Of a stretch of DNA of 64,000 bases, positions 3,434 to 14,476 are shown one piece after another. Positions within the stretch are counted from its first letter, which is position 1, and the number at the start of each line of letters is the position of its first letter. The stretch comes from an uncultured Clostridia bacterium (GTDB lineage Bacteria > Bacillota > Clostridia > Christensenellales > UBA1242). The translations under genes were made by a program, and so were the position numbers. The notes beneath the pieces were generated by a model that worked only from the letters and a program-made list of their open reading frames with translations, had not been told where the DNA came from and ran no database searches. The DNA is taken from assembly GCA_944383375.1 (NCBI GenBank), contig CALWPG010000001.1:46827-110826 (forward strand), written 5' to 3'.

Positions 3434-5890
3434 TTAACCTCTTTTTATTTCTACTTTTTGATACACTTCTAGCACATCCCCTACTTTTACACCCTGTGAG
3501 TCTTTAAGTTTTATGCCACATTCAAAACCATATGAAACTTCTGCTTTATCATCTTTTTGTATTCTTAGGGCAACAATACTCGTTTCAAGAATTTTTTCTT
3601 CGCCACGATAGACATTAACAAAAGCATTTCTAGTTATTTTACCGTCTGTCACATAACTACCACAAACTACTCCACTTGTTGAAAGTTTAAACATCATTCT
3701 TACTTCAGCATGACCTATTATTTGTTCTTCGTATTTTACAGACAACATACCATTTAGCGCTTTTGTAATCTCATCAACAACTTCATAGATTATTTTATAT
3801 GATTTTATTTGAACTGACATTGATTCAGCAAGTTGTTCAATTTTTGATGATAATTTCAAATTAAAATTAATTACAACAGCAGCACATGCCTGAGCCAGCA
3901 ATAGATCAGATTCGGTCACAGGGCCTGCTCCACTGTGTATACAAACAACCCTTGCTTCTTCATTTTTTATAGCTGTTAGCGATTGTTTTAATGCTTCAAC
4001 AGAGCCTTGAACATCTGCCTTGATGATAATATTTAAAGCCTTTAATTTGCCTTCATTAACTTTGTCCATAAAGTCTTCAAGTGAAACACCACTAGTAGAT
4101 TTTGAACGTAATTCCTTAGCCTTTGCAATTCGTTCATCAATAACTTGTTTTGACAATTTTTCATCAACAGCAAAAACTCGATCACCAGAATTTGGAACAC
4201 TATCCAAACCAAGAACAGCCACAGGCATACTTGGTTCAGCAGATTTAACCGGCTTTCCATTCTCATCAAACATCGCTCGCACTTTACCGAATGACGTTCC
4301 ACTGATTATAGAGTCACCTACTCTCAAAGTACCATTTTGGACGAGAATTGTGGCAACAGCACCACGGTTTTTATCAAGTTCCGCTTCCAAAACTGACCCC
4401 GTTGCACTTGTGTTAGGGTTTGCCTTTAACTCTGAAACTTCAGCCACAAGTAAAATAGTTTTCAGCAAATCATCAATACCTAACCCCTGCTTTGCAGACA
4501 CGGGAACTAAAATCGCATCGCCACCCCATTCTTCTGGTAAAACACCATTATCTGCAAGCTGTTGTTTTATTCTTTCGATATTTGCTTCGGGTTTATCTAT
4601 TTTGTTAATTGCCACAATCATAGGAACGTCAGCTGCTTTTATATGATTGATTGCCTCTATAGTTTGTGGCATTATTCCATCGTCAGCAGCAACAACCAAA
4701 ATTGCGATATCAGTTACTTTTGCACCTCTTGCACGCATTGCCGTGAAAGCAGCGTGACCTGGTGTGTCAATAAAGGTTATTTTCTCCCCTTCATATTCTA
4801 TCTGATATGCACCTATCTTCTGCGTAATGCCGCCAGCTTCTCCGGCCACAACATTTGTCTTACGAATAGCATCAAGAAGTGAAGTCTTTCCATGATCAAC
4901 GTGTCCCATAACGGCGACTACAGGAGGACGCTTAACCATATCTACATCATTTTGTTCATGTTCTTTGACGTCATCCATCAGTTGTTCTTCATAGGATTTC
5001 TCAATTTTTTGTTCTAGTTTAACTCCCAATTCTCCGGCAACCAATTCTGCTGTCATAAAATCAATAGAACTATTGATGTTGGCCATTATCCCGAGCATCA
5101 TTAACTGTTTGATAATTTCTGTTACAGGTCTTCCGGTTTTCTCAGAAAGTGTTTTCACTGTTACATCTTCTGTTGTAATAACCGCATTTTCAATTTTGGG
5201 AGCAACAAAGGTCTTTTGTTCTTTTTTCTTCCTTGCAAGTTTTCTGTTGCCCATCCTTTCGCCATCAAAATCTACACTATCATCAACAATAAAGTTTTTT
5301 CTTAATAAAGATTTTTTGTTAGTTTGCCTTTTTTCATCAAGAGTCCTGTTGGATTTATTTTTATTACCATAGTTCCTTTCTGGTTGTGAAAGTACACTGC
5401 TACTTTCCATAGGTTCAAAAACTTTGAATGAATTAGCTTTTGAACTAACAAAATTTTTGGTACCCGTTCTAGTGCCAAATGGCCTATTGTTTTGGTTGTA
5501 ACGATTCTGGTTTGGTCTGTTTGTATTTGCATGTTGCATTTTATTACTAGCATTTCTATCTTGTTTTTGAGAAAAATCTCTTTTTTTGTCGAAAACCGTC
5601 TTAATATTTTGATTTTTGTTTAAACCATTATTATTTACATTGGCATTTTTTTCATTCTGAGCCAGACTACTAGTTTCTTGGCTTTCTGTAATCCCTTGTG
5701 CATTATTATCTAACGTTGCACTAAGCTTTCTTTGTAACTCATTATTTAATGAATTTATTAACTCATCTAATTGAGATTTTGACGACCTTAAATCACGAAG
5801 CAGAATTTGCACTGTTCCGTTTCTTTGAAGCCCAAAGATAGCTTTTAAATTGTTTAATCCATTTTGTTGTTTTTCCGTTTGTTTAGCCAA
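3434..5890 (-). CDS. infB: Translation initiation factor IF-2
   Basis: GHVDHGKT, DTPGH, NKID and GFECGI; likely TTG start at 5890, downstream of GAGGTG. Confidence 0.97.
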   Translation of the reverse strand: MAKQTEKQQNGLNNLKAIFGLQRNGTVQILLRDLRSSKSQLDELINSLNNELQRKLSATLDNNAQGITESQETSSLAQNEKNANVNNNGLNKNQNIKTVFDKKRDFSQKQDRNASNKMQHANTNRPNQNRYNQNNRPFGTRTGTKNFVSSKANSFKVFEPMESSSVLSQPERNYGNKNKSNRTLDEKRQTNKKSLLRKNFIVDDSVDFDGERMGNRKLARKKKEQKTFVAPKIENAVITTEDVTVKTLSEKTGRPVTEIIKQLMMLGIMANINSSIDFMTAELVAGELGVKLEQKIEKSYEEQLMDDVKEHEQNDVDMVKRPPVVAVMGHVDHGKTSLLDAIRKTNVVAGEAGGITQKIGAYQIEYEGEKITFIDTPGHAAFTAMRARGAKVTDIAILVVAADDGIMPQTIEAINHIKAADVPMIVAINKIDKPEANIERIKQQLADNGVLPEEWGGDAILVPVSAKQGLGIDDLLKTILLVAEVSELKANPNTSATGSVLEAELDKNRGAVATILVQNGTLRVGDSIISGTSFGKVRAMFDENGKPVKSAEPSMPVAVLGLDSVPNSGDRVFAVDEKLSKQVIDERIAKAKELRSKSTSGVSLEDFMDKVNEGKLKALNIIIKADVQGSVEALKQSLTAIKNEEARVVCIHSGAGPVTESDLLLAQACAAVVINFNLKLSSKIEQLAESMSVQIKSYKIIYEVVDEITKALNGMLSVKYEEQIIGHAEVRMMFKLSTSGVVCGSYVTDGKITRNAFVNVYRGEEKILETSIVALRIQKDDKAEVSYGFECGIKLKDSQGVKVGDVLEVYQKVEIKRG

Positions 5891-6200
5891 TGTTTTCACC
5901 TCTTATACATTCTATGATTTTTTCTGACAATGCTTTATTTTTAAATGCAACTACTTTACATGCAGGAATATTCGTTATCGTTGTAAACTCATCATGTTTC
6001 AATTTTATTTTTTCATATTTTGTTTTAGTTTTTAAATTATTTATTATGCTAATCAAGCTTTCACCACAATCGTCTCTAAATAATACTAAATATATTTTTT
6101 TGCAATATTTTTTTAAGTTGTCTTGACCAATTATAGCAAAGCCACCTTTTCTTGCTATGTTGACTATTCCTTTAATGTCGTTAATTTGCTTTATTGTCAA
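5883..6200 (-). CDS. ylxQ: L7Ae/YlxQ-like RNA-binding protein
   Basis: GIVNIARKGG N-terminus; lies between ylxR and infB. Confidence 0.7.
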   Translation of the reverse strand: MTIKQINDIKGIVNIARKGGFAIIGQDNLKKYCKKIYLVLFRDDCGESLISIINNLKTKTKYEKIKLKHDEFTTITNIPACKVVAFKNKALSEKIIECIRGENIG

Positions 6201-6435
6201 TAGTTACCTCTTTGATATTAATCAGATTTTCTTCACTTACGTTAAATCTAAATACTTTATTTAATATTTTCGTGCTAAGTGAAGACAAACAATTTTTACA
6301 GACATAAGCACCTTTGCCATTTAGCATGCGTTTATTGTCGACTACAAGTTTGTTGTCAACTTTTACAAGTCGAACAAGGTTTTGTTTAGATAGTCTCTGC
6401 CTACAAGCAATACACATTCTTTGAACATCCATCAC
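6181..6435 (-). CDS. ylxR: YlxR/RnpM family protein
   Basis: RMCIACR and GKGAYVC motifs; follows nusA. Confidence 0.88.
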   Translation of the reverse strand: MMDVQRMCIACRQRLSKQNLVRLVKVDNKLVVDNKRMLNGKGAYVCKNCLSSLSTKILNKVFRFNVSEENLINIKEVTIDNKAN

Positions 6436-7577
6436 TCACCATCAATATCGTCAATATCTTCAAGACTTTCAAAGCTGTATTCATCATCACCGAGATCGGT
6501 AAGTTCGTATTCAACTTCTTTAACCTGAGATTCAGATTTAACTGAACTTTCCGGTTTAACATCAATTTTCCAACCTGTAAGTCTGGCAGCAAGGCGCACA
6601 TTTTGTCCACCTTTTCCTATTGCCAAAGACAATTTATCATCTGGAACAATAACTCTTGAAGATTTTAAACTTTCGTTAATCTCAACACTTAAAACTTTTG
6701 CAGGGCTCAGCGCATTTGCTATATATTCCAAAGGATCTTCAGAATAAGGCACGAGATCAATCTTCTCTCCGTTGATTTCACTCATTATGGTATTGATTCG
6801 AACTCCCCTGTTACCGACACATGCACCCAATGCATCTATGTGAGGCTTGGTTGCCATAATTGCAACCTTACTTCTGTTTCCAGGATCTCTAGCAATGTTT
6901 TTAATAACAACTTCTCCAGTTTCTATTTCTGGAACTTCAATTTCGAATAATTTTCTAAGAAATCCCACATTACTTCTTGAAACTTGAATCTGCACACCCT
7001 TAAAACTTTCTTTTATTTTTTTAACGTAAACTTTTACTCTGTCATTGACATGAAAGACCTCGCCCGGTATTTGGTCTTGCTCAAGCATAACTCCTTCTGT
7101 GTGTGAGCCTGCAATTTGAACATAAACCACTTTTTGGTCAATCCTTTTTACAACTGTAGTCAACAACTCATCTTCTTTTTCGGCAAGTTCGCCAAGAGTA
7201 ATTTGTTTTTCAATTTCTTTTATTTTTTGCATAACAACTTGTTTAGCTGTTTGTGCTGCAATTCGTCCAAAATCTTTCGTATTTTCCTCTTGCGTGACTA
7301 TGTCACCAATTTTGTAACTTGACTTTATCTTGGTTGCATCTTCTAAAGAAATTTCTTTGTCCGGATTCTCAACTTCCTCCACCACTGTTTTATAACTGAA
7401 AATTTTAATGGTGTTTTTTTCAGGGTTGAGTTTAACCTGTGCACTTTTAGCCTCACCATACATCTTTTTGTATGCAGAAGTAAGAGCAGATTCCAAGGCC
7501 TCAATTAATTGGTCTGGATTGATTTTCTTTGTTGTTTCAAGTTCTTCTAATGCTTGAAAAAAATCTTTGTTTATCAT
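6432..7577 (-). CDS. nusA: Transcription termination/antitermination factor NusA
   Basis: FGRIAAQTAKQV and AIGKGGQNVRLAARLTGWKIDVK; ATG 7577 downstream of AAGGAG. Confidence 0.97.
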   Translation of the reverse strand: MINKDFFQALEELETTKKINPDQLIEALESALTSAYKKMYGEAKSAQVKLNPEKNTIKIFSYKTVVEEVENPDKEISLEDATKIKSSYKIGDIVTQEENTKDFGRIAAQTAKQVVMQKIKEIEKQITLGELAEKEDELLTTVVKRIDQKVVYVQIAGSHTEGVMLEQDQIPGEVFHVNDRVKVYVKKIKESFKGVQIQVSRSNVGFLRKLFEIEVPEIETGEVVIKNIARDPGNRSKVAIMATKPHIDALGACVGNRGVRINTIMSEINGEKIDLVPYSEDPLEYIANALSPAKVLSVEINESLKSSRVIVPDDKLSLAIGKGGQNVRLAARLTGWKIDVKPESSVKSESQVKEVEYELTDLGDDEYSFESLEDIDDIDGE

Positions 7578-7587
7578 GTTTTTCTCC

Positions 7588-8049
7588 TTAAAATTCAATA
7601 ACTGGACTGATCAAAGCGACATCTGAAAGTGGAAATGTTACTTCTTTTTCATCCACACTGATCACAACATCACTAGCTGTGTAATCTTTCAAATAGCCCA
7701 CAAATTTTTTGTTGCCGTCTTTTTGTTTGTAGAGAGTGATCTCGAACTTTTTATTTTTATTCCGAACAAAATCATTGTAATTTTTGATAGGTCTGTCAAG
7801 CCCTGGTGAACTTATGTTTAAAATGTAAGGTGCATTAACAGTCGGATCCAATTCATCAAGTAAATCTGAAATGGCATCATTTACTTTTTCACAATCTTCT
7901 ACAGTTATGCCATCTTTAGAGTCAATATAAAAAGTCAAGTTCATCCCATCAACTTTCTTTTTATATTCTACCTCAACCACCTCATAACCCAGTGATTCAA
8001 TGATCGGGCAAACTTTTTCATTACACAATTCAACAACTTTACTTGGCAT
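7588..8049 (-). CDS. rimP: Ribosome maturation factor RimP
   Basis: ISSPGLDRP motif; ATG 8049 downstream of GAGGGAG. Confidence 0.95.
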   Translation of the reverse strand: MPSKVVELCNEKVCPIIESLGYEVVEVEYKKKVDGMNLTFYIDSKDGITVEDCEKVNDAISDLLDELDPTVNAPYILNISSPGLDRPIKNYNDFVRNKNKKFEITLYKQKDGNKKFVGYLKDYTASDVVISVDEKEVTFPLSDVALISPVIEF

Positions 8050-8064
8050 TTTTCTCCCTCTACA

Positions 8065-8097
8065 ATTAAGAGTGGGCAAGTTTTGCCCACTCTTAAT
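8065..8097 (-). promoter_or_regulatory. rimP leader hairpin
   Basis: Perfect 15-bp inverted repeat ATTAAGAGTGGGCAA-3nt-TTGCCCACTCTTAAT; AAGAGTGGG..CCCACTCTT hairpins are typical upstream of Bacillota rimP. Confidence 0.75.
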
Positions 8098-8108
8098 CTA
8101 GCAAGTAT

Positions 8109-8137
8109 AGTCTAACACATATGATATTAATAATCAA
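8109..8137 (-). promoter_or_regulatory. sigma-A promoter of the rimP-nusA-infB operon
   Basis: TTGATT-17 nt-TAGACT with an extended TG. Confidence 0.55.
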
Positions 8138-8154
8138 TCATTTTTTTAAAAAAA

Positions 8155-9729
8155 TTACATTTCATTGAGTTTTAAAAATACTTCAGCAGTTGCAATTGCA
8201 TCGGCAATTGCCCTATGCGCATTTTTTAGGGTGAGACCCAATGCATCAACAACATTGATTAGTTTATATCTTGACAAATACATTTTTTTTCTTACAATAT
8301 CCATTGCATCAACACTTTCATTATAAAAATGCAGTTTGGCTTTTTTGGCAGTATTCTGAATAAATCCCAAATCGAAATCCACGTTATAACCAACCAAAAC
8401 ACTTCCTTCACAAAATTTATAAAAGTCTGTTATTGCCTGACTTGAGTTTGGTGCATCTTTGACCATATCATTTGTAATGGTTGTAAGTTTTGTAATCTCA
8501 TCTGGGATTTCATTCTCTGGACAAATAAAAGTCTGAAACTGTTCTTTTATTAGCCCATCTACAATTTTTACAGCTCCTATTTCAATAATTTCATTGTAAG
8601 TACAGCTTAGTCCAGTAGTTTCACAGTCGAAGACCACAAAGGTGTTTTTGGTGATATAATCATTGTATGAAGGCTTGACATCAAACAAATTTTCTTGACG
8701 GTCGAGAACATATGGAGATGGCTTAACATATTTATATTCTTCAATATGTACATTTTTCAATATTGGTTCTTCGATATCTTGTTCTTTTGTTTCATTTTCT
8801 TTTATTAAAGATTTGTCAATTTCGCATAAAGCCATACTTTTTACATATAACTTTTTCTTATCATAGTCTTTTTTTATGTCACCTACAATTAAAATATCGT
8901 CACCATCTTTGAGTACACTAACCTTTTTATAACTGCTTTTATTTGCAAAATATATTGCATCAATACTAGACGTGTGATCTGTGAGTGTAAAAGTTAAATA
9001 GTGACTTTGCTCACTCAATCCCTTTTGTTTGTTGCGTTTCGAAATATATGTTTTGTCACTCAAGTTTGAAATTTTCCCAGCCAAAATAACTGCAATTTTT
9101 GATTCTGATTGGTTTTTAATTGGCTCGGGCATTGGAGTAATTTCTTGTCCACACAAAAGTACTGGATCAAAAACTGGATATCTTTCAATTCTTTTTTCCT
9201 GAGGCAGATGTTCTATCACAGATTTTTCGTGCATTGTTAACTCTTGTTGGTCAATCTGTGAGTCATCCATGACAATCTCAACACCAAACTGTGCAATAAA
9301 ATTTTTGTTTAAATTATCCGTAATTTTTTCTTTTATATTGTTGTCCATAAAATAGTTGTATACAACATCTAAAAGTGAGATCTCGATATTTATTTTATCA
9401 TCATGTCTTTCTACTTTTATCTTTTGTTCATCATAGTATGCAAACATCGATGGAAAAGTGGTTTTTAAAAAATCTATTAAATTTTTCTTAATCAGCCATT
9501 CATCTAAATAGCTTTTTTTGAATTTGATTTTAACATCACAGGATAAATTTAATTGGTTTTTTACGAATTCGCTCAAACTTTTTTTTTCATCGTCACTAAA
9601 ATTTTCACAACTTTCTGGATATAAAAAAATGATTTCCACAAAAGAGCCCATAATGTATTTAACACTAAGCACCTTTAAGAAATCATATTTATTTGCAAAT
9701 TTTGCATTTATCCTTTTTAAAATTTCCAC
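8155..9729 (-). CDS. PolC-derived protein: N-terminal domain + OB fold + DEDDh 3'-5' exonuclease, lacking PHP and polymerase domains
   Basis: OB segment (LTFTLTDHTSSI..GDDILIVGDI); ExoI VVFDCETTG, ExoII YNVDFD and ExoIII HRAIAD; occupies the polC slot between rseP and rimP. Confidence 0.85.
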   Translation of the reverse strand: MEILKRINAKFANKYDFLKVLSVKYIMGSFVEIIFLYPESCENFSDDEKKSLSEFVKNQLNLSCDVKIKFKKSYLDEWLIKKNLIDFLKTTFPSMFAYYDEQKIKVERHDDKINIEISLLDVVYNYFMDNNIKEKITDNLNKNFIAQFGVEIVMDDSQIDQQELTMHEKSVIEHLPQEKRIERYPVFDPVLLCGQEITPMPEPIKNQSESKIAVILAGKISNLSDKTYISKRNKQKGLSEQSHYLTFTLTDHTSSIDAIYFANKSSYKKVSVLKDGDDILIVGDIKKDYDKKKLYVKSMALCEIDKSLIKENETKEQDIEEPILKNVHIEEYKYVKPSPYVLDRQENLFDVKPSYNDYITKNTFVVFDCETTGLSCTYNEIIEIGAVKIVDGLIKEQFQTFICPENEIPDEITKLTTITNDMVKDAPNSSQAITDFYKFCEGSVLVGYNVDFDLGFIQNTAKKAKLHFYNESVDAMDIVRKKMYLSRYKLINVVDALGLTLKNAHRAIADAIATAEVFLKLNEM

Positions 9730-10983
9730 CTAAAGCCCCACGACGGCAATGTGAACTATGTCCACTATCACCACAAACAATAATAACACAATCAGGCCAT
9801 AAAAGTGAATATAATTTTCAACTTTTCTGCTAACTACTGGTTTTCTAAATATCAATTCCAAAAGAGTAAATACTGCATGACCGCCATCTAAAGCTGGTAT
9901 TGGAAGGAAGTTGAATACCGCCAAATTGGCAGCAAGAAGCGGCAACAAAATTAGGAAGTTTGCAAAACTTGTTTGCATAATTTCCGACATCATACCAATT
10001 GTGGAAATTGATCCACCAAGTTCTGAAAATGCAATTTGGCCAGTAATAATTTGCCAAAATCCTTTCAGTACCACCCAAGCAAAGCCTGCGGCAAGTTCAA
10101 AGCTTCGACCAAGAGCCTCCCAAAAATTATGGACATAAGCTTCAGTGGTGAAACCAGCAACAAGTCTTGTTTCCTCTTCACCATTGTCATTCGTTATGGT
10201 TTCTTGTGCCAACCTTATGGTGACTTCCATTCTTTGATTGTCGCGTTCAATATCTAATACGATATCTGTGTCAGGTCCTGCCTCGCTTAAAAGTTCAGAT
10301 AGTGTGCCGGAAAACGCAAAACTAATTCTTGTACCGTTCACACCCCAGATTATATCACCCTCTTGTAAATCTTGATAGAGATTTGCATAATTTGTGTCTA
10401 GAGTTTTAACCCTTGGAATATCATAACCGTATGAAATTAAAAGAATAAAAGAAAACAATATGGCACTTAGGAAATTGAAAGCGACGCCTGCCATATAGAC
10501 AAGCAATCTTTTCCAAGGTTTTTGGTTGATAAAGTCACCAGTGTGGTCCTCCACTTTTTTTGTGACCTTGTCATCAGTTATGTCGTTAATTTCTTTTATA
10601 ATGTCATTTGTCTGTGCGTTTTTGGTTGTGTTATTTTCTTTTGTTTTTTCTTTTTTATCTTCTTTAATTTCTTCGGTCTTTTCTTCTTTAACCTCTAAAT
10701 CTTTTTTGTCATCTTTCTTGTCATCTTTTTTATCTTCCTCATCGTCATCTCCCTCTCCAGCAAATGCACAGTAACCGCCTAGTGGAAAAATACGTAGCGA
10801 AATCTTTTCTCCACGTTTGTTGACTTTGGAAAATATAGCCTTACCAAATCCAATTGAAAATTCTGTAATTTTAAAACCAAGCCACCTACCAACACAGTAG
10901 TGACCAAATTCGTGTATTAACACCATCAAAAGTAATACACATATGGCTAGTATAACATAACCAATCGTAGTTAAAATTCCCAT
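9730..10983 (-). CDS. rseP: RIP metalloprotease RseP (M50, PDZ)
   Basis: HEFGH, FSIGFG, PLGGYC and NFLPIPALDGG. Confidence 0.93.
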   Translation of the reverse strand: MGILTTIGYVILAICVLLLMVLIHEFGHYCVGRWLGFKITEFSIGFGKAIFSKVNKRGEKISLRIFPLGGYCAFAGEGDDDEEDKKDDKKDDKKDLEVKEEKTEEIKEDKKEKTKENNTTKNAQTNDIIKEINDITDDKVTKKVEDHTGDFINQKPWKRLLVYMAGVAFNFLSAILFSFILLISYGYDIPRVKTLDTNYANLYQDLQEGDIIWGVNGTRISFAFSGTLSELLSEAGPDTDIVLDIERDNQRMEVTIRLAQETITNDNGEEETRLVAGFTTEAYVHNFWEALGRSFELAAGFAWVVLKGFWQIITGQIAFSELGGSISTIGMMSEIMQTSFANFLILLPLLAANLAVFNFLPIPALDGGHAVFTLLELIFRKPVVSRKVENYIHFYGLIVLLLFVVIVDIVHIAVVGL

Positions 10984-10992
10984 TTAAACTCC

Positions 10993-11943
10993 TTACAACA
11001 TTATCACTAAAAATATAAATATAAGTGGAGCGCAGACAATATGACTATCCATGCGATCCAAAACACCACCATGACCTGGCAATATGTCACCAGAGTCTTT
11101 AACATTGGCTCTTCGCTTCAAGTAACTTTCAAACAAATCCCCTAGTTCGCAAACTATAGAAACGACAACTCCAACTATGATAGACTGCCAAAAAGCGAAG
11201 CCAGCTTGTACAAAAACGGTGTTATATTGTGGAAAGGCGTTAAAGATAAGATATAAAATGACTGCTGAAATAGCTCCCCAAATCACACCACCAATTGCGC
11301 CAGAAATGGTTTTATTTGGACTTATTTTTGGACAAAGTTTTGACCCCTTGAACAATGAACCAGTAAGATATGCAAATGTATCGGTAAATACTGGTATTAT
11401 GAATGCCAATATCAATCCAAAGGTACTAATCAAAAACAAATCACTATCTGTGAAAGTGGAAAAATAGACCGACATCTGTGATATATCGTTAATAAATACA
11501 AAAAACAGCATGAGTATGGCTGGATAGAAATAGATATACATGGTTTGTATAGCTTTGTAAATTGAAAAACTTTCCACCCTAAGTTTTAGATTTCTTGTGG
11601 CTATCTCATTTTTAGTACGCTTATAAGTAAACAAACTGAAAAACCACTGTGCCATAACAAAAACTATTATTAAAGCAAGTTCCAAAAGTAACAGCATATA
11701 CCAACGCATATCTAAATTAATGCATAGAATGAATAGACCATATGCGAACAGTGGATATGCAATAGCAAAATATTTGTTGTTGTAAACTCCCATTTTTGCA
11801 AAAAGATTGCTTGTCTCATAGCATGCATACATGGCAATTATGAGTATGAAAGCATCAAAAATGTATGTTGATAATTGTCTTGCAAGTAATACAAGTATCA
11901 AAACGGCAATCAAAGTTGCACCTGTTATTATTCTTTGTTTCAT
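10993..11943 (-). CDS. cdsA: Phosphatidate cytidylyltransferase
   Basis: ISPNKT and GDLFESYLKRRANVKDSGDILPGHGGVLDRMDS. Confidence 0.95.
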   Translation of the reverse strand: MKQRIITGATLIAVLILVLLARQLSTYIFDAFILIIAMYACYETSNLFAKMGVYNNKYFAIAYPLFAYGLFILCINLDMRWYMLLLLELALIIVFVMAQWFFSLFTYKRTKNEIATRNLKLRVESFSIYKAIQTMYIYFYPAILMLFFVFINDISQMSVYFSTFTDSDLFLISTFGLILAFIIPVFTDTFAYLTGSLFKGSKLCPKISPNKTISGAIGGVIWGAISAVILYLIFNAFPQYNTVFVQAGFAFWQSIIVGVVVSIVCELGDLFESYLKRRANVKDSGDILPGHGGVLDRMDSHIVCAPLIFIFLVIML

Positions 11944-12662
11944 TGATTTTTCTCCTGTTTTACGTTACCGAAACGTCTGTCTCTCCTTTGGTATTCTATT
12001 ATGGCTTTTTTTAAATGCCTTTCATCAAAATCAGGCCAATGTATTTTAGGAAAATATAATTCCGCATAGGCATTTTGAAACAACATAAAATTGGAAAGTC
12101 TCATCTCACCACTGGTTCGAATTATTAGGTCAGGATCTGGGAGTTCATTTGTATAAAGTTCAGATCTTATATCCTCCTCAGTGATTTCAACTTTACCCTT
12201 TTGGGCAAGATTTGTAAAGGCTCTTGCAAGCTCACTTCTAGAGCCATAATTTAAACCAATGTTGACTATAAAATCAGTGTTGTTTTTTGTTTTTTCTGTG
12301 ACATCAAGTAAAAGGTCATACAATTCTTTTGGTAATTTGGATATGTCACCCATTGTCATAATTTTTGTATTACCTTTCACAAAGTCATCATAATTTTCTT
12401 TTAGATGTTTCAAGACCAAATCAAATATGCCATCAACTTCTTCCTTGCTCCTTTTCCAATTTTCAGTGGAAAAGGCAAAATAAGACATAACTTTAATACC
12501 TAAATCCTTCGCAGCTTGAGTCACTCTTTTTAAAGCATCAACTCCCGCTTTATGTCCTGCAAGCCTTGGCAAAAGGCGTCTTTTTGCCCACCTGCCGTTG
12601 CCATCCATAATGATGCCTATATGCTTAGGCAAATTTTGCATATCAATTTTTTTGTACATCAA
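11940..12662 (-). CDS. uppS: Undecaprenyl diphosphate synthase
   Basis: IMDGNGRWA, FSTENWKR and IRTSGEMRLSNF. Confidence 0.96.
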   Translation of the reverse strand: MMYKKIDMQNLPKHIGIIMDGNGRWAKRRLLPRLAGHKAGVDALKRVTQAAKDLGIKVMSYFAFSTENWKRSKEEVDGIFDLVLKHLKENYDDFVKGNTKIMTMGDISKLPKELYDLLLDVTEKTKNNTDFIVNIGLNYGSRSELARAFTNLAQKGKVEITEEDIRSELYTNELPDPDLIIRTSGEMRLSNFMLFQNAYAELYFPKIHWPDFDERHLKKAIIEYQRRDRRFGNVKQEKNQ

Positions 12663-12847
12663 TCTTCCTTTAAATTAAACAAAAATTCGCCATAAGTTAT
12701 AGTAGCACTATCACCACTATGCGAAACATTTGTAACGAGGTAAGTATCACCCTTTATGTTGTAATTGTTGCACACAGTGCGGCATTTAATACCCTTATCT
12801 CTCAAAATGGTTAGCACGGTGTCTAGTGGCATTAAAACATAGTCCAT
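12659..12847 (-). CDS. Small hypothetical protein (62 aa) between frr and uppS
   Basis: ATG overlaps the frr stop (TAATG) and its stop overlaps the uppS start, indicating translational coupling. Confidence 0.6.
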   Translation of the reverse strand: MDYVLMPLDTVLTILRDKGIKCRTVCNNYNIKGDTYLVTNVSHSGDSATITYGEFLFNLKED

Positions 12848-13419
12848 TATATTTCCATAACCTCTTTTTCTTTTGCCTCGCACTCTTCGTCACATAAGCC
12901 AATATATTTGTCTTGAAGTTTTTGAACATCGTCTTCAAGATTATTATATTCATCTTCGCTCAGCATGTTGTCTTTTTTCATTTGTTTGAACATATCCAAA
13001 CAATCACGTCTAGCAGAACGCATGGTTACTTTAGTCTCTTCACTAAGCTTTTTAACCTGCTTTACAATCTCACGTCTTCTTTCCTCAGTCAATGCTGGAA
13101 ATATCAACCTTATAATCTTTCCATCATCTGTTGGCTGAACACCCAAGTCTGCCATCTGAATGGCTTTTGAAACATTTTTAAGTTGACTTTGATCCCAAAC
13201 ATTTATGGCAAGCACCCTCGCCTCTTGAACCTGAATATTTGCCATTTGATTGAGTGGAGTCATAACCCCATAATATTCCACCATAACCTTGTCAAGTATG
13301 TGTGGGTTTGCCCTACCAGCACGAATTACTTGATATTCGCCAATAAGGTGTGCATGTGCCTTTTTTAAGTCCTCTTCATAGCCATCAAGTACATCGTTTA
13401 CCATTTGTTCGTCTTGCAT
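12847..13419 (-). CDS. frr: Ribosome recycling factor
   Basis: IRAGRANP and FPALTEERRREIVK. Confidence 0.96.
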   Translation of the reverse strand: MQDEQMVNDVLDGYEEDLKKAHAHLIGEYQVIRAGRANPHILDKVMVEYYGVMTPLNQMANIQVQEARVLAINVWDQSQLKNVSKAIQMADLGVQPTDDGKIIRLIFPALTEERRREIVKQVKKLSEETKVTMRSARRDCLDMFKQMKKDNMLSEDEYNNLEDDVQKLQDKYIGLCDEECEAKEKEVMEI

Positions 13420-13549
13420 ATATACTCCTTACATTATTTTAACTAAAAATTATATTACAACAAAACAACAATAAAATCAAATGAAATAAGGTAATTTAGC
13501 ATTTTGTCATATTCCACCGCATTTGTGTTATATCCAGCAATATACTCCT

Positions 13550-13762
13550 TGTCATGTCGAACGAAGTGAGACATCTCAAAGATTCCTCGGAACTAAAAGT
13601 TCCTCGGAATGACAGGAAGTTATGCATCGCATCTCGGAATGACAGGGGTATTGTGTTATGTTGAAACACACCCACCTGTCATCCAGAACAAAGTGAGGGA
13701 TCTCATAGATTCCTCACCTGAAGGTTCGAGATGACACAGTGGTGAGATTCCTCGGAATGACA
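13550..13762. repeat. Cluster of about 6 REP-like TGTC-tagged hairpin units
   Basis: Units at 13550-13577, 13580-13614, 13633-13644 (partial), 13677-13704, 13707-13736 and 13744-13762 share TGTCATTCCGA..GAGGAATCT or its reverse complement. Confidence 0.85.
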
Positions 13763-13789
13763 GAAGTAACATATGTCATGGCATAAAAC

Positions 13790-13821
13790 AAAAAAAATGC
13801 CCAACAACATGTTGGGCATTT
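13790..13821 (-). terminator. Intrinsic terminator of rpsB-tsf
   Basis: AAATGCCCAACA/TGTTGGGCATTT stem followed by a T-run on the minus strand. Confidence 0.85.
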
Positions 13822-13825
13822 GATG

Positions 13826-14476
13826 TTATTTTTTATTTGTCATTTTTGCAATTTCTTCAGCCAAGTTATCTTGACGTTTCTCAAGTCCCTCTCCCATTTC
13901 ATAGCGAACAAATCTTCTAACATTGATTTTTTCACCAATGGCGAGAACAGCTTCATTAATAACTTCTTTTACAGTTTTTGAAGTGTCTTTTACGAATTCC
14001 TGTTCCAAAAGGCAAATCTCTTTGTAGAATTTGTGTATTCTACCCTCAACCATTTTCTCAACAACATTTGCTGGTTTGCCTTCATTTAGAGATTGTTGAG
14101 TAAGAATTTCTTTTTCTTTTTCAACTTCTTCTGCTGGAACATCTTCAATTCGAACATATTTTGGATTGGCTGCAGCAATTTGCATAGCAACATCTTTAAG
14201 TAAAGTCAAAAATTGCTCACTTCTGGCGACAAAATCTGTTTCACAGTTAATTTCAACCAAAACGCCAATTTTGCCCCCCATATGAATATATGAGCCAACT
14301 GCACCTTCTGCAGCAATTCTATCAGCTTTTTTAGCAGCCGCAGCAATGCCTTTTTCTCTTAACCAAATAACTGCTTTGTCAAAATCTCCATCACTTTCGG
14401 TAAGAGCTTTTTTACAATCCATCATACCAGCACCTGTGCTAGCACGTAGTTTAACAACATCTTGAGCAGTAAACAT
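13826..14476 (-). CDS. tsf: Elongation factor Ts (short form)
   Basis: [12 protein letters not shown] and [10 protein letters not shown]. Confidence 0.97.

Follow-up and report, generated by a model that had tools for sequence, protein, structure and literature searches.

A shortened gene in the place of polC

What is kept of a replicase gene once the polymerase that it encoded has gone, and to what end? This question is raised by a locus of an uncultured Clostridia bacterium (GTDB lineage Bacillota; Clostridia; Christensenellales; UBA1242). The stretch of DNA analysed here, called the window below, comprises 64,000 nucleotides of contig CALWPG010000001.1 of GenBank assembly GCA_944383375.1 (positions 46,827 to 110,826 of the forward strand), and all feature coordinates refer to it. 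PolC is regarded as a hallmark and essential replicase of Firmicutes and is an antibiotic target. In the slot of its gene, the minus strand of the window carries an intact open reading frame (ORF) of only 524 amino acids (8155..9729; GTG start, stop codon at 8155-8157), which combines an N-terminal domain (NTD), an OB fold, a linker and a DEDDh exonuclease, and which we call the short form. A first-pass annotation of the DNA had located this ORF in the polC slot, with coordinates and motifs that proved correct throughout. It had proposed that a lineage replicating with DnaE alone uses the remnant as an epsilon-like, clamp-tethered proofreader.

The ORF is the surviving N-terminal half of PolC. 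In a relative that encodes a full PolC (G030), the gene order is dxr-rseP-ispG-polC-rimP-nusA; in a genome with the short form (G040) it is dxr-rseP-ispG-short form-rimP-nusA, and short-form relatives carry a gene for 511-518 amino acids in the place of polC. The short proteins are colinear with PolC over the NTD, the OB fold and the exonuclease. The best NCBIfam family for the ORF was the PolC equivalog NF001688, at 174.6 bits for a cut-off of 873, with TIGR01405 at 150 for a cut-off of 1043. Furthermore, the best match in the PDB for the AlphaFold2 model of the whole protein was PolC (9qpc_A, E 4.4e-18, 417 columns). This model has a predicted local distance difference test score (pLDDT) of 88.8 and a predicted template-modelling score of 0.43, so that the individual domains are reliable and their mutual arrangement is not.

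The descent was further evaluated with a quick IQ-TREE phylogeny of 68 N-terminal halves (38 short forms, 21 PolCs of the order and nine other clostridial PolCs; 505 columns). The tree was rooted on the nine other clostridial PolCs, one of which fell among the PolCs of the order. The 38 short forms make up one clade, nested among the order's PolCs, with an SH-like approximate likelihood ratio (SH-aLRT) support of 100 and a stem length of 0.88. This single, supported clade points to one truncation event followed by long retention.

Domain architecture of the short form

The NTD spans residues 1 to about 175 (9205..9729). The Pfam models of the PolC N-terminus were nearly silent here: among 57 family members PF11490 matched one, and PF14480 was not among the 25 families shown. 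The homology was therefore established by profile-profile comparison. Aligned with hhalign, 135 short-form NTDs matched 28 PolC NTDs with a probability of 96.9% (E 1.7e-10) over 137 colinear columns, and the reversed control gave a probability of 0.1%. In the predicted structure, the NTD is made of two KH-like halves of the β-β-α-β(-α) type (residues 19-98 and 104-154), followed by a helix (residues 161-173), and two β-β-α-β units were also obtained when the NTD was modelled alone (pLDDT 80.5).

A fold search with residues 75-156 of the NTD returned KH-like matches, of which the best (Z 9.6) was to one chain of a mitochondrial small-subunit assembly intermediate; the others included ribosomal protein S3 (Z 8.0), the KH-like domain of Der, RbfA, domain I of DnaA and DciA. 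Residues 1-74 matched chain E of 5fku, the Pol III complex of E. coli (Z 6.0), a chain that we take to be the tau C-terminus. With this search tool a Z below about 8 may reflect a common arrangement, and all NTD matches lie at or below 8.0 except the one at 9.6. Superposition by Foldseek on BON and NusA KH domains gave root-mean-square deviations (rmsd) of at least 15 Å. In line with the fold search, two KH-like subdomains have been predicted before for the NTD of PolC, and a contact of this NTD with the clamp loader has been proposed (PMC3919608).

The OB fold covers residues ~186-304 (8818..9174). It was recognised by PF01336 (tRNA_anti-codon) at residues 215-299 with an E of 2.8e-6, a model that matched 54 of the 57 family members; the region aligns with the OB fold of full PolCs, and its strands run from residue 186 to 304 in the model. 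It is followed by a linker (residues 305-362, 8644..8817) where PolC has its N-terminal PHP half. When aligned with PolCs, the short proteins lack some 75 residues of this half and have a linker of ~45-58 residues in their stead; a short linker in this place had been described by the first-pass annotation. The linker was also considered as an eroded N-terminal PHP half; this reading found no support, as hhalign against that part of PolC aligned only the ExoI strand. In the model the pLDDT of the linker is 47-69 at residues 311-330, 94 at residues 331-340 and 76 at residues 341-350.

The DEDDh 3′-5′ exonuclease domain occupies residues 363-524 (8158..8643). RNase_T (PF00929) matched residues 365-518 with an E of 3e-36 (125.9 bits for a cut-off of 24), and the DnaQ-family model TIGR00573 scored 117 bits for a cut-off of 71.5. 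Its sequence match in the PDB is 2p1j, the PolC exonuclease of T. maritima (E 4.6e-28), and Foldseek superposed the domain on the DinG exonuclease, DnaQ and epsilon with rmsd values of 1.3-2.2 Å. All three exonuclease motifs are present: ExoI as DCETTG at residues 368-373 (8611..8628), invariant in the family alignment A1, and, in the family alignments, ExoII as NVDFD at residues 449-453 (8371..8385) and ExoIII as HRAIAD at residues 505-510 (8200..8217). The catalytic pentad is thus intact (D368, E370, D453, H505 and D510), each residue being kept in 95% or more of the 113 homologues in the alignment.

Only 14 residues of the ORF follow ExoIII, in line with the earlier observation that it stops right after this motif. 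The same short tail is found across the family, with a median of 16 residues (149 of 150 representatives with the H.A..D pattern). The C-terminal PHP half is absent, since the ORF ends after the exonuclease, and the catalytic core of the Pol III alpha subunit (PF07733) had no Pfam match in the ORF; the domain models that were proposed as a check thus found the OB fold and RNase_T and no polymerase. The spacer between the ORF and rimP (8080..8154) measures 75 bp if the TTG start of rimP is used, and is too short for any remainder of PolC. Counted to the first ATG of rimP, the distance is ~102 bp, which corresponds to the gap of about 105 bp first reported.

A clamp-type motif in front of the exonuclease

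Within the linker, residues 345-349 read QENLF (8683..8697), a motif of the beta-clamp-binding type by its conservation and its match to the consensus. The linker is otherwise variable; among the 113 aligned homologues Q345 is present in all, N347 in 96, leucine or isoleucine at 348 in 107 and F349 in 106. Clamp-binding motifs follow a published consensus, QL[S/D]LF or QxxLF, in which positions 1, 4 and 5 are critical (PMC12309361); the same three positions are conserved here.

The wider family was then scored for the pattern Qxx[LIMFV][FLM] within 45 residues before ExoI. It occurs in 144 of 150 representatives taken at 50% identity, compared with 79 of 1391 control windows (5.7%) from the rest of these proteins. 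The distance from the glutamine to the ExoI aspartate has a median of 23 residues. Among the 144, the third position is taken by N in 64, by D in 35 and by S in 24 sequences (123 in all), the fourth by L in 91 and the fifth by F in 124. Of the six representatives outside the pattern, four show near variants such as QANWF. At the homologous place, none of 18 full PolCs has the motif; it is present in 18 of 19 short forms that belong to other families of the order, the nineteenth reading QTDVF. The motif is thus specific to the short forms and, from its distribution in these sequences, seems to have been gained on the stem of their clade.

Loss of PolC in a clade of gut Clostridia

The source genome (994,686 bases in 18 contigs, 99% complete) contains a single PF07733 match, a 1209-aa DnaE-type gene on contig C3, and a single PF00929 DEDDh match, which is the ORF itself. 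Searching the whole genome by tblastn with three full PolCs of the same order retrieved only this ORF and DnaE. There is therefore one polymerase of the DnaE1 type, no full-length polC, no frameshifted remainder of it and no second DEDDh domain in this genome; the lineage has DnaE alone, as had been suspected.

The same situation extends far beyond the source. In its genus, the gene was found in 17 of 19 other species at 50-74% identity, being split across contigs in two of the 17; the genomes of the two remaining species are 89-90% complete. Of the 151 genomes sampled in the order, 74 scored over the PolC cut-off and two more (G149 and G172) carry PolC in pieces on small contigs. In the remaining 75, the source included, the best E to the PolC model was only 1e-31 to 1e-52, and among the matches listed it came from the exonuclease part, within a frame of ~500-560 aa. 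The 75 genomes fall into 18 of the 42 families, none of which is mixed. Besides PolC, one DnaE was found in each of the five PolC-bearing relatives checked, which is the polymerase set known from Clostridia (PMC3919608, PMC12926913).

When 1.84 billion representatives were searched with a profile, the best 150 clusters at 50% identity were all short forms (E ≤ 1e-109, 313-573 aa), so that the architecture is shared by at least 150 such clusters, 144 of the 150 with the QxxLF-type motif, besides its spread over 18 families; the conservation in relatives on which the original proposal hinged is therefore present. The matching loci come from uncultured Clostridia, from metagenome-assembled genomes of Christensenellaceae and Christensenella, and from Candidatus Coproplasma, Onthoplasma, Scatosoma and Neoclostridium. 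Public records label the homologues only as 'exonuclease domain-containing', 'ribonuclease H-like domain-containing' or 'hypothetical'. These data indicate that PolC was lost in the ancestor of a large clade of small-genome gut Clostridia.

The integrity of the locus was verified in independent data. The stretch 7500-10100 was represented (at least half of the sampled words) in 18 sequencing runs from about nine other studies, all of them gut metagenomes and mostly from chicken. A 32,382-base contig from another study spans this stretch with five substitutions and no indel, and the junction of the ORF end with rimP is crossed by a contig (7830-8260) from a second run, so that a misassembly at the 3′ end is not the cause of the short frame.

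Purifying selection acts on the ORF. Even between the two closest sequences compared (87% identical) the synonymous sites are saturated, and we therefore give the proportions of non-synonymous (pN) and synonymous (pS) differences rather than a dN/dS ratio (non-synonymous to synonymous substitution rates). For this pair pN is 0.076 and pS, saturated, is 0.746; by part, pN is 0.045 in the exonuclease, 0.074 in the linker and 0.093 in the NTD and OB fold together. The earlier argument against decay is upheld by the intact frame, by a pN far below pS and by the retention of the catalytic residues.

Three loci were treated apart. L117 (G045) and L122 (G027) are full-length PolC loci of the order without the D.ETTG pattern of ExoI and were excluded from the PolC motif control and from the tree; the exonuclease region of G027 matched the query weakly (25% identity, E 1.4e-8). 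These PolCs may have a degenerate or absent exonuclease, as reported for some Clostridia (PMC3919608). L127 (G049 C10, 985-2334, minus strand) is a different exonuclease gene, excluded from the motif count and the tree. It encodes a 449-aa protein with an N-terminal DEDDh exonuclease (ExoI at residue 23) and ~280 residues after ExoIII, and is the best PolC-model match in a genome of a PolC-less family.

A genus that has dropped the exonuclease

A natural deletion of the exonuclease was found in a genus of the same family as the source, g6. All five of its species carry an ORF of 294-343 aa that consists of the NTD and OB fold alone; it stops directly behind the OB fold and has neither linker nor motif nor exonuclease. 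The copy of G024 lies at L016:5074-6090 (-) on contig C2, and the other four (L145, L146 and L147 among them) are 41-46% identical to it. No RNase_T/DEDDh domain was detected in any of the five genomes (65-91% complete), and each of them has DnaE. This pattern suggests that exonuclease and motif were lost together and that the NTD-OB module is kept for its own sake. The neighbourhood downstream of the G024 copy is rearranged, with a methyltransferase-like ORF where rimP is expected.

DnaE1 and the replisome of the source genome

The DnaE of the source has an N-terminal PHP domain with all nine signature residues of the 'active' type, an internal QFSLF, an OB fold and a C-terminal domain. The nine PHP residues are present in all nine DnaEs that we compared (the source, three from g6 and five from PolC-bearing relatives). 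By literature criteria (PMC3919608, PMC12926913), its sequence classifies it as a self-sufficient DnaE1 with its own predicted proofreader. MutS and PolA are also encoded in the source genome, as is a DnaN of 370 aa (contig C3).

The DnaX of the source is gamma-like. Its frame of 384 aa (contig C3:59880-60947, L185, outside the window) matches the N-terminal dnaX model only and leaves no room for the C-terminal domains of tau. DnaX frames across the order are mostly 500-700 aa long, and short frames of 381-419 aa were seen only within the PolC-less clade, in the families f1 and f17 and in part of f16. A short DnaX was considered as a correlate of PolC loss and rejected, most PolC-less families having kept frames of 500-600 aa.

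A high gene-strand bias has been linked to the presence of PolC (PMC11040001). By a crude measure, 80% of the source genome's ORFs of at least 120 aa (586 of 731) lie on the strand that is locally G-rich, a figure that is partly circular because the composition of the coding strand itself feeds the GC skew. The GC skew stays negative over the whole window, and the minus strand carries every ORF named at 3434-14476. A high gene-strand bias of the PolC type would thus be persisting without PolC.

A proposed second proofreader beside DnaE1

Our preferred interpretation is that the remnant acts in trans as a second, clamp-tethered proofreader beside the PHP domain of DnaE1, its NTD-OB module having a selected role of its own. 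We give this reading a probability of about 0.55. The ancestral PolC would have shed its polymerase core together with both PHP halves, C-terminal and N-terminal, leaving the arrangement NTD-OB-linker-exonuclease, and a motif of the form Q-x-[N/D/S]-[L/F/M/I]-F would have arisen in the new linker. A single self-sufficient DnaE1 would copy the genome. The linker motif may dock in the hydrophobic pocket of one DnaN protomer, the other being taken by DnaE1, and the exonuclease, which starts ~15-23 residues after the motif, would thereby be held next to the primer terminus. There it is expected to remove mismatched 3′ ends, in second place to the PHP exonuclease of DnaE1. The NTD and the OB fold could provide further anchors, for instance on the clamp loader or another replisome protein and on the single-stranded template.

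Several points weigh against this interpretation. The PHP site of DnaE1 is intact in all nine proteins compared, so that a DEDDh proofreader is not obviously needed, and the g6 pattern shows that the exonuclease is not indispensable when PHP is intact. The 14 residues that follow ExoIII offer no counterpart to the alpha-binding tail of epsilon. Moreover, a pLDDT of 94 just before the motif and of 76 at the motif may mean that part of the linker packs on a domain instead of being free, and the mycobacterial DnaQ discussed below, whose clamp motif is dispensable for its antimutator role, indicates that a clamp motif alone is no proof of the site of function. The intact DnaE1 site and the loss in g6 together suggest that the exonuclease would be an additional proofreader, neither the sole nor an indispensable one.

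The most serious competitor, which we nevertheless regard as rather unlikely, is that the protein is a clamp-recruited exonuclease of DNA repair or processing, engaged in 3′ flap trimming, mismatch-repair excision or stalled forks, with a PolC ancestry that is only historical. This would fit the intact PHP proofreader of DnaE1, the dispensability of the exonuclease in g6 and the presence of MutS and PolA, which implies that clamp-using repair pathways exist; QxxLF motifs are found in many repair proteins (PMC12309361). However, the polC slot and the NTD-OB module of PolC have been kept throughout the history of the clade, the ORF is the sole DEDDh domain in the genome, and the proofreaders epsilon and mycobacterial DnaQ likewise have a clamp motif directly next to their DEDDh domain.

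The g6 genus, in which five of five species keep an intact ORF of NTD and OB fold, lends itself to another explanation, in which this module is the selected core, a non-catalytic replisome scaffold, and the exonuclease and motif are optional parts not yet lost in most lineages. The resemblance of the KH-like NTD halves to DnaA domain I and DciA, the match to chain E of 5fku (Z 6.0), the clamp-loader contact proposed for the PolC NTD (PMC3919608) and the gamma-like, 384-aa DnaX of the source are all consistent with it. We judge it unlikely all the same: the exonuclease is the best conserved part, with the lowest pN (0.045) and an intact pentad, unlike a dispensable appendage; the Z scores fall in the range of common arrangements; and the short DnaX is restricted to f1, f17 and part of f16 instead of following the whole PolC-less clade.

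A further, tentative reading may be offered, to which we attach limited weight. The NTD-OB module of PolC might be a replisome organiser that bridges DnaE1, the clamp loader and the template, and the exonuclease with its clamp motif a detachable proofreader. The NTD would then be composed of two KH-like subdomains that, judging from the models, resemble tau domain V. The organiser would be most needed where DnaX is gamma-like (384 aa, without the C-terminal tau domains), the source family included, and a proofreader that can be detached from an NTD-OB scaffold would explain why g6 dropped the exonuclease and not the NTD-OB module.

A structural role for the QxxLF-like motif, which would pack the linker on the exonuclease or the OB fold in a protein independent of the clamp, appears improbable. 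The pLDDT of 76 at the motif, with 94 just before it, and a position 3 that is mostly N and not the classical S or D are compatible with such packing. The conservation is nevertheless concentrated at positions 1, 4 and 5 between variable flanks, the motif is absent from 18 of 18 full PolCs that fold the same exonuclease domain, and the model has no secondary structure at residues 341-356. Finally, a decaying pseudogene, a sporadic paralogue or an assembly artefact can practically be dismissed, the frame being intact in 17 of the 19 other species of the genus (apart from the contig breaks in two of them) and across 18 families, with pN far below pS, an independent contig across the locus and no polC elsewhere.

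Relation to known replicases and proofreaders

Compared with full PolC, the short form has the same chromosomal slot and a homologous, colinear NTD, OB fold and DEDDh exonuclease, and it nests in the PolC tree of the order. It differs by the absence of the polymerase core, the HhH and the C-terminal clamp motif region, by the lack of any recognisable PHP half, and by the QxxLF-type motif before the exonuclease, which none of the 18 PolCs has.

E. coli epsilon binds the PHP domain of alpha through a C-terminal segment and carries its clamp motif C-terminal to the exonuclease. The short form resembles it as a stand-alone DEDDh exonuclease (E 4e-10 to 1e-9; fold rmsd ~2 Å), with a clamp-type motif beside the exonuclease domain and a polymerase of the DnaE type as putative partner. 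In contrast to epsilon, the short form has an extra NTD and OB fold, an independent origin from PolC, no C-terminal alpha-binding segment and a motif on the N-terminal side of the exonuclease, and it coexists with a DnaE1 of intact PHP site. Of the proposed epsilon-like, clamp-tethered proofreader, the likeness in the putative clamp-type tether stands, and the alpha-binding segment has no equivalent. An active PHP domain and an E. coli-like DnaQ seem to exclude one another (PMC11348249).

The non-canonical DnaQ of mycobacteria uses Q[Y/L]ALF to bind the clamp and serves as an additional proofreader in cooperation with that of an active PHP domain, and its clamp-binding motif is dispensable for the antimutator role (PMC11348249). 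It has in common with the short form the DEDDh domain, a QxxLF-type motif and the coexistence with a DnaE1 of intact PHP site, and by analogy it would be a closer functional counterpart than E. coli epsilon. The mycobacterial protein has a BRCT domain and a C-terminal motif, whereas no BRCT was among the Pfam matches of the short form, whose motif is N-terminal to the exonuclease and which carries the NTD-OB module of PolC.

Gain, loss and shuffling of the exonuclease module of C-family polymerases, especially in Clostridia, have been described by Timinskas et al. (2014; PMC3919608), who report DnaE1 variants with an N-terminally fused exonuclease and PolC variants devoid of the Exo insert, as well as some Clostridia with DnaE1 only. 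In the variants given there, the exonuclease is fused to or missing from the polymerase; here the polymerase is gone and the exonuclease survives with the NTD-OB module. We found no description of an NTD-OB-Exo remnant of PolC in the literature searched, which included PMC3919608, the 2026 survey of complete genomes PMC12926913, PMC11040001 and PMC3774996 (supplements lay outside the search). The short form would be a stand-alone proofreading subunit of the DnaQ type that derives from PolC and still carries its N-terminal module.

Of the genomes sampled in the order, roughly half (75 of 151, from 18 families) are without the PolC polymerase and rely on DnaE1 alone, and they would be intrinsically outside the reach of PolC inhibitors. 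The remnant comprises the least-understood parts of PolC, the NTD and the OB fold, along with the proofreader, and amounts to a natural dissection of the enzyme. It may also trace how a proofreading domain that was built into a polymerase turned into a subunit of its own, apparently tethered to the clamp. The clade provides a system for relating the PolC+DnaE1 replisome of Clostridia to replisomes with one polymerase, and g6 allows mutation spectra to be compared with and without the extra proofreader. The PolC+DnaE1 system was called experimentally uncharacterised by Timinskas et al. (PMC3919608). If the NTD-OB module were indeed an organiser, the clade would record how a proofreading domain in cis became a subunit in trans, and a hidden function of the PolC N-terminus would apply to PolC-bearing Firmicutes as well.

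Neighbouring genes and further observations

The ORFs named around the short form are read from the minus strand. Downstream lies rimP, named by its position (7588..8079), then nusA-like and infB-like ORFs. Within the short form, a 269-base contig from a chicken-gut metatranscriptome library matches the linker region (8554-8822) with no differences; the cover of the ORF in the RNA library is limited to this segment and gives a hint of transcription only, DNA carry-over being possible.

Upstream, the start codon of the short form abuts the stop codon of a 417-aa ORF (9730..10983), which we read as an RseP-like membrane protease from its HEFGHY-type site. This ORF contains a highly charged, K/E/D-rich insert of low complexity and ~80 residues (GEGDDDEEDKKDDKKDDKK...; window 10500-10800, minus strand), placed between the N-terminal HExxH region and the remaining protease.

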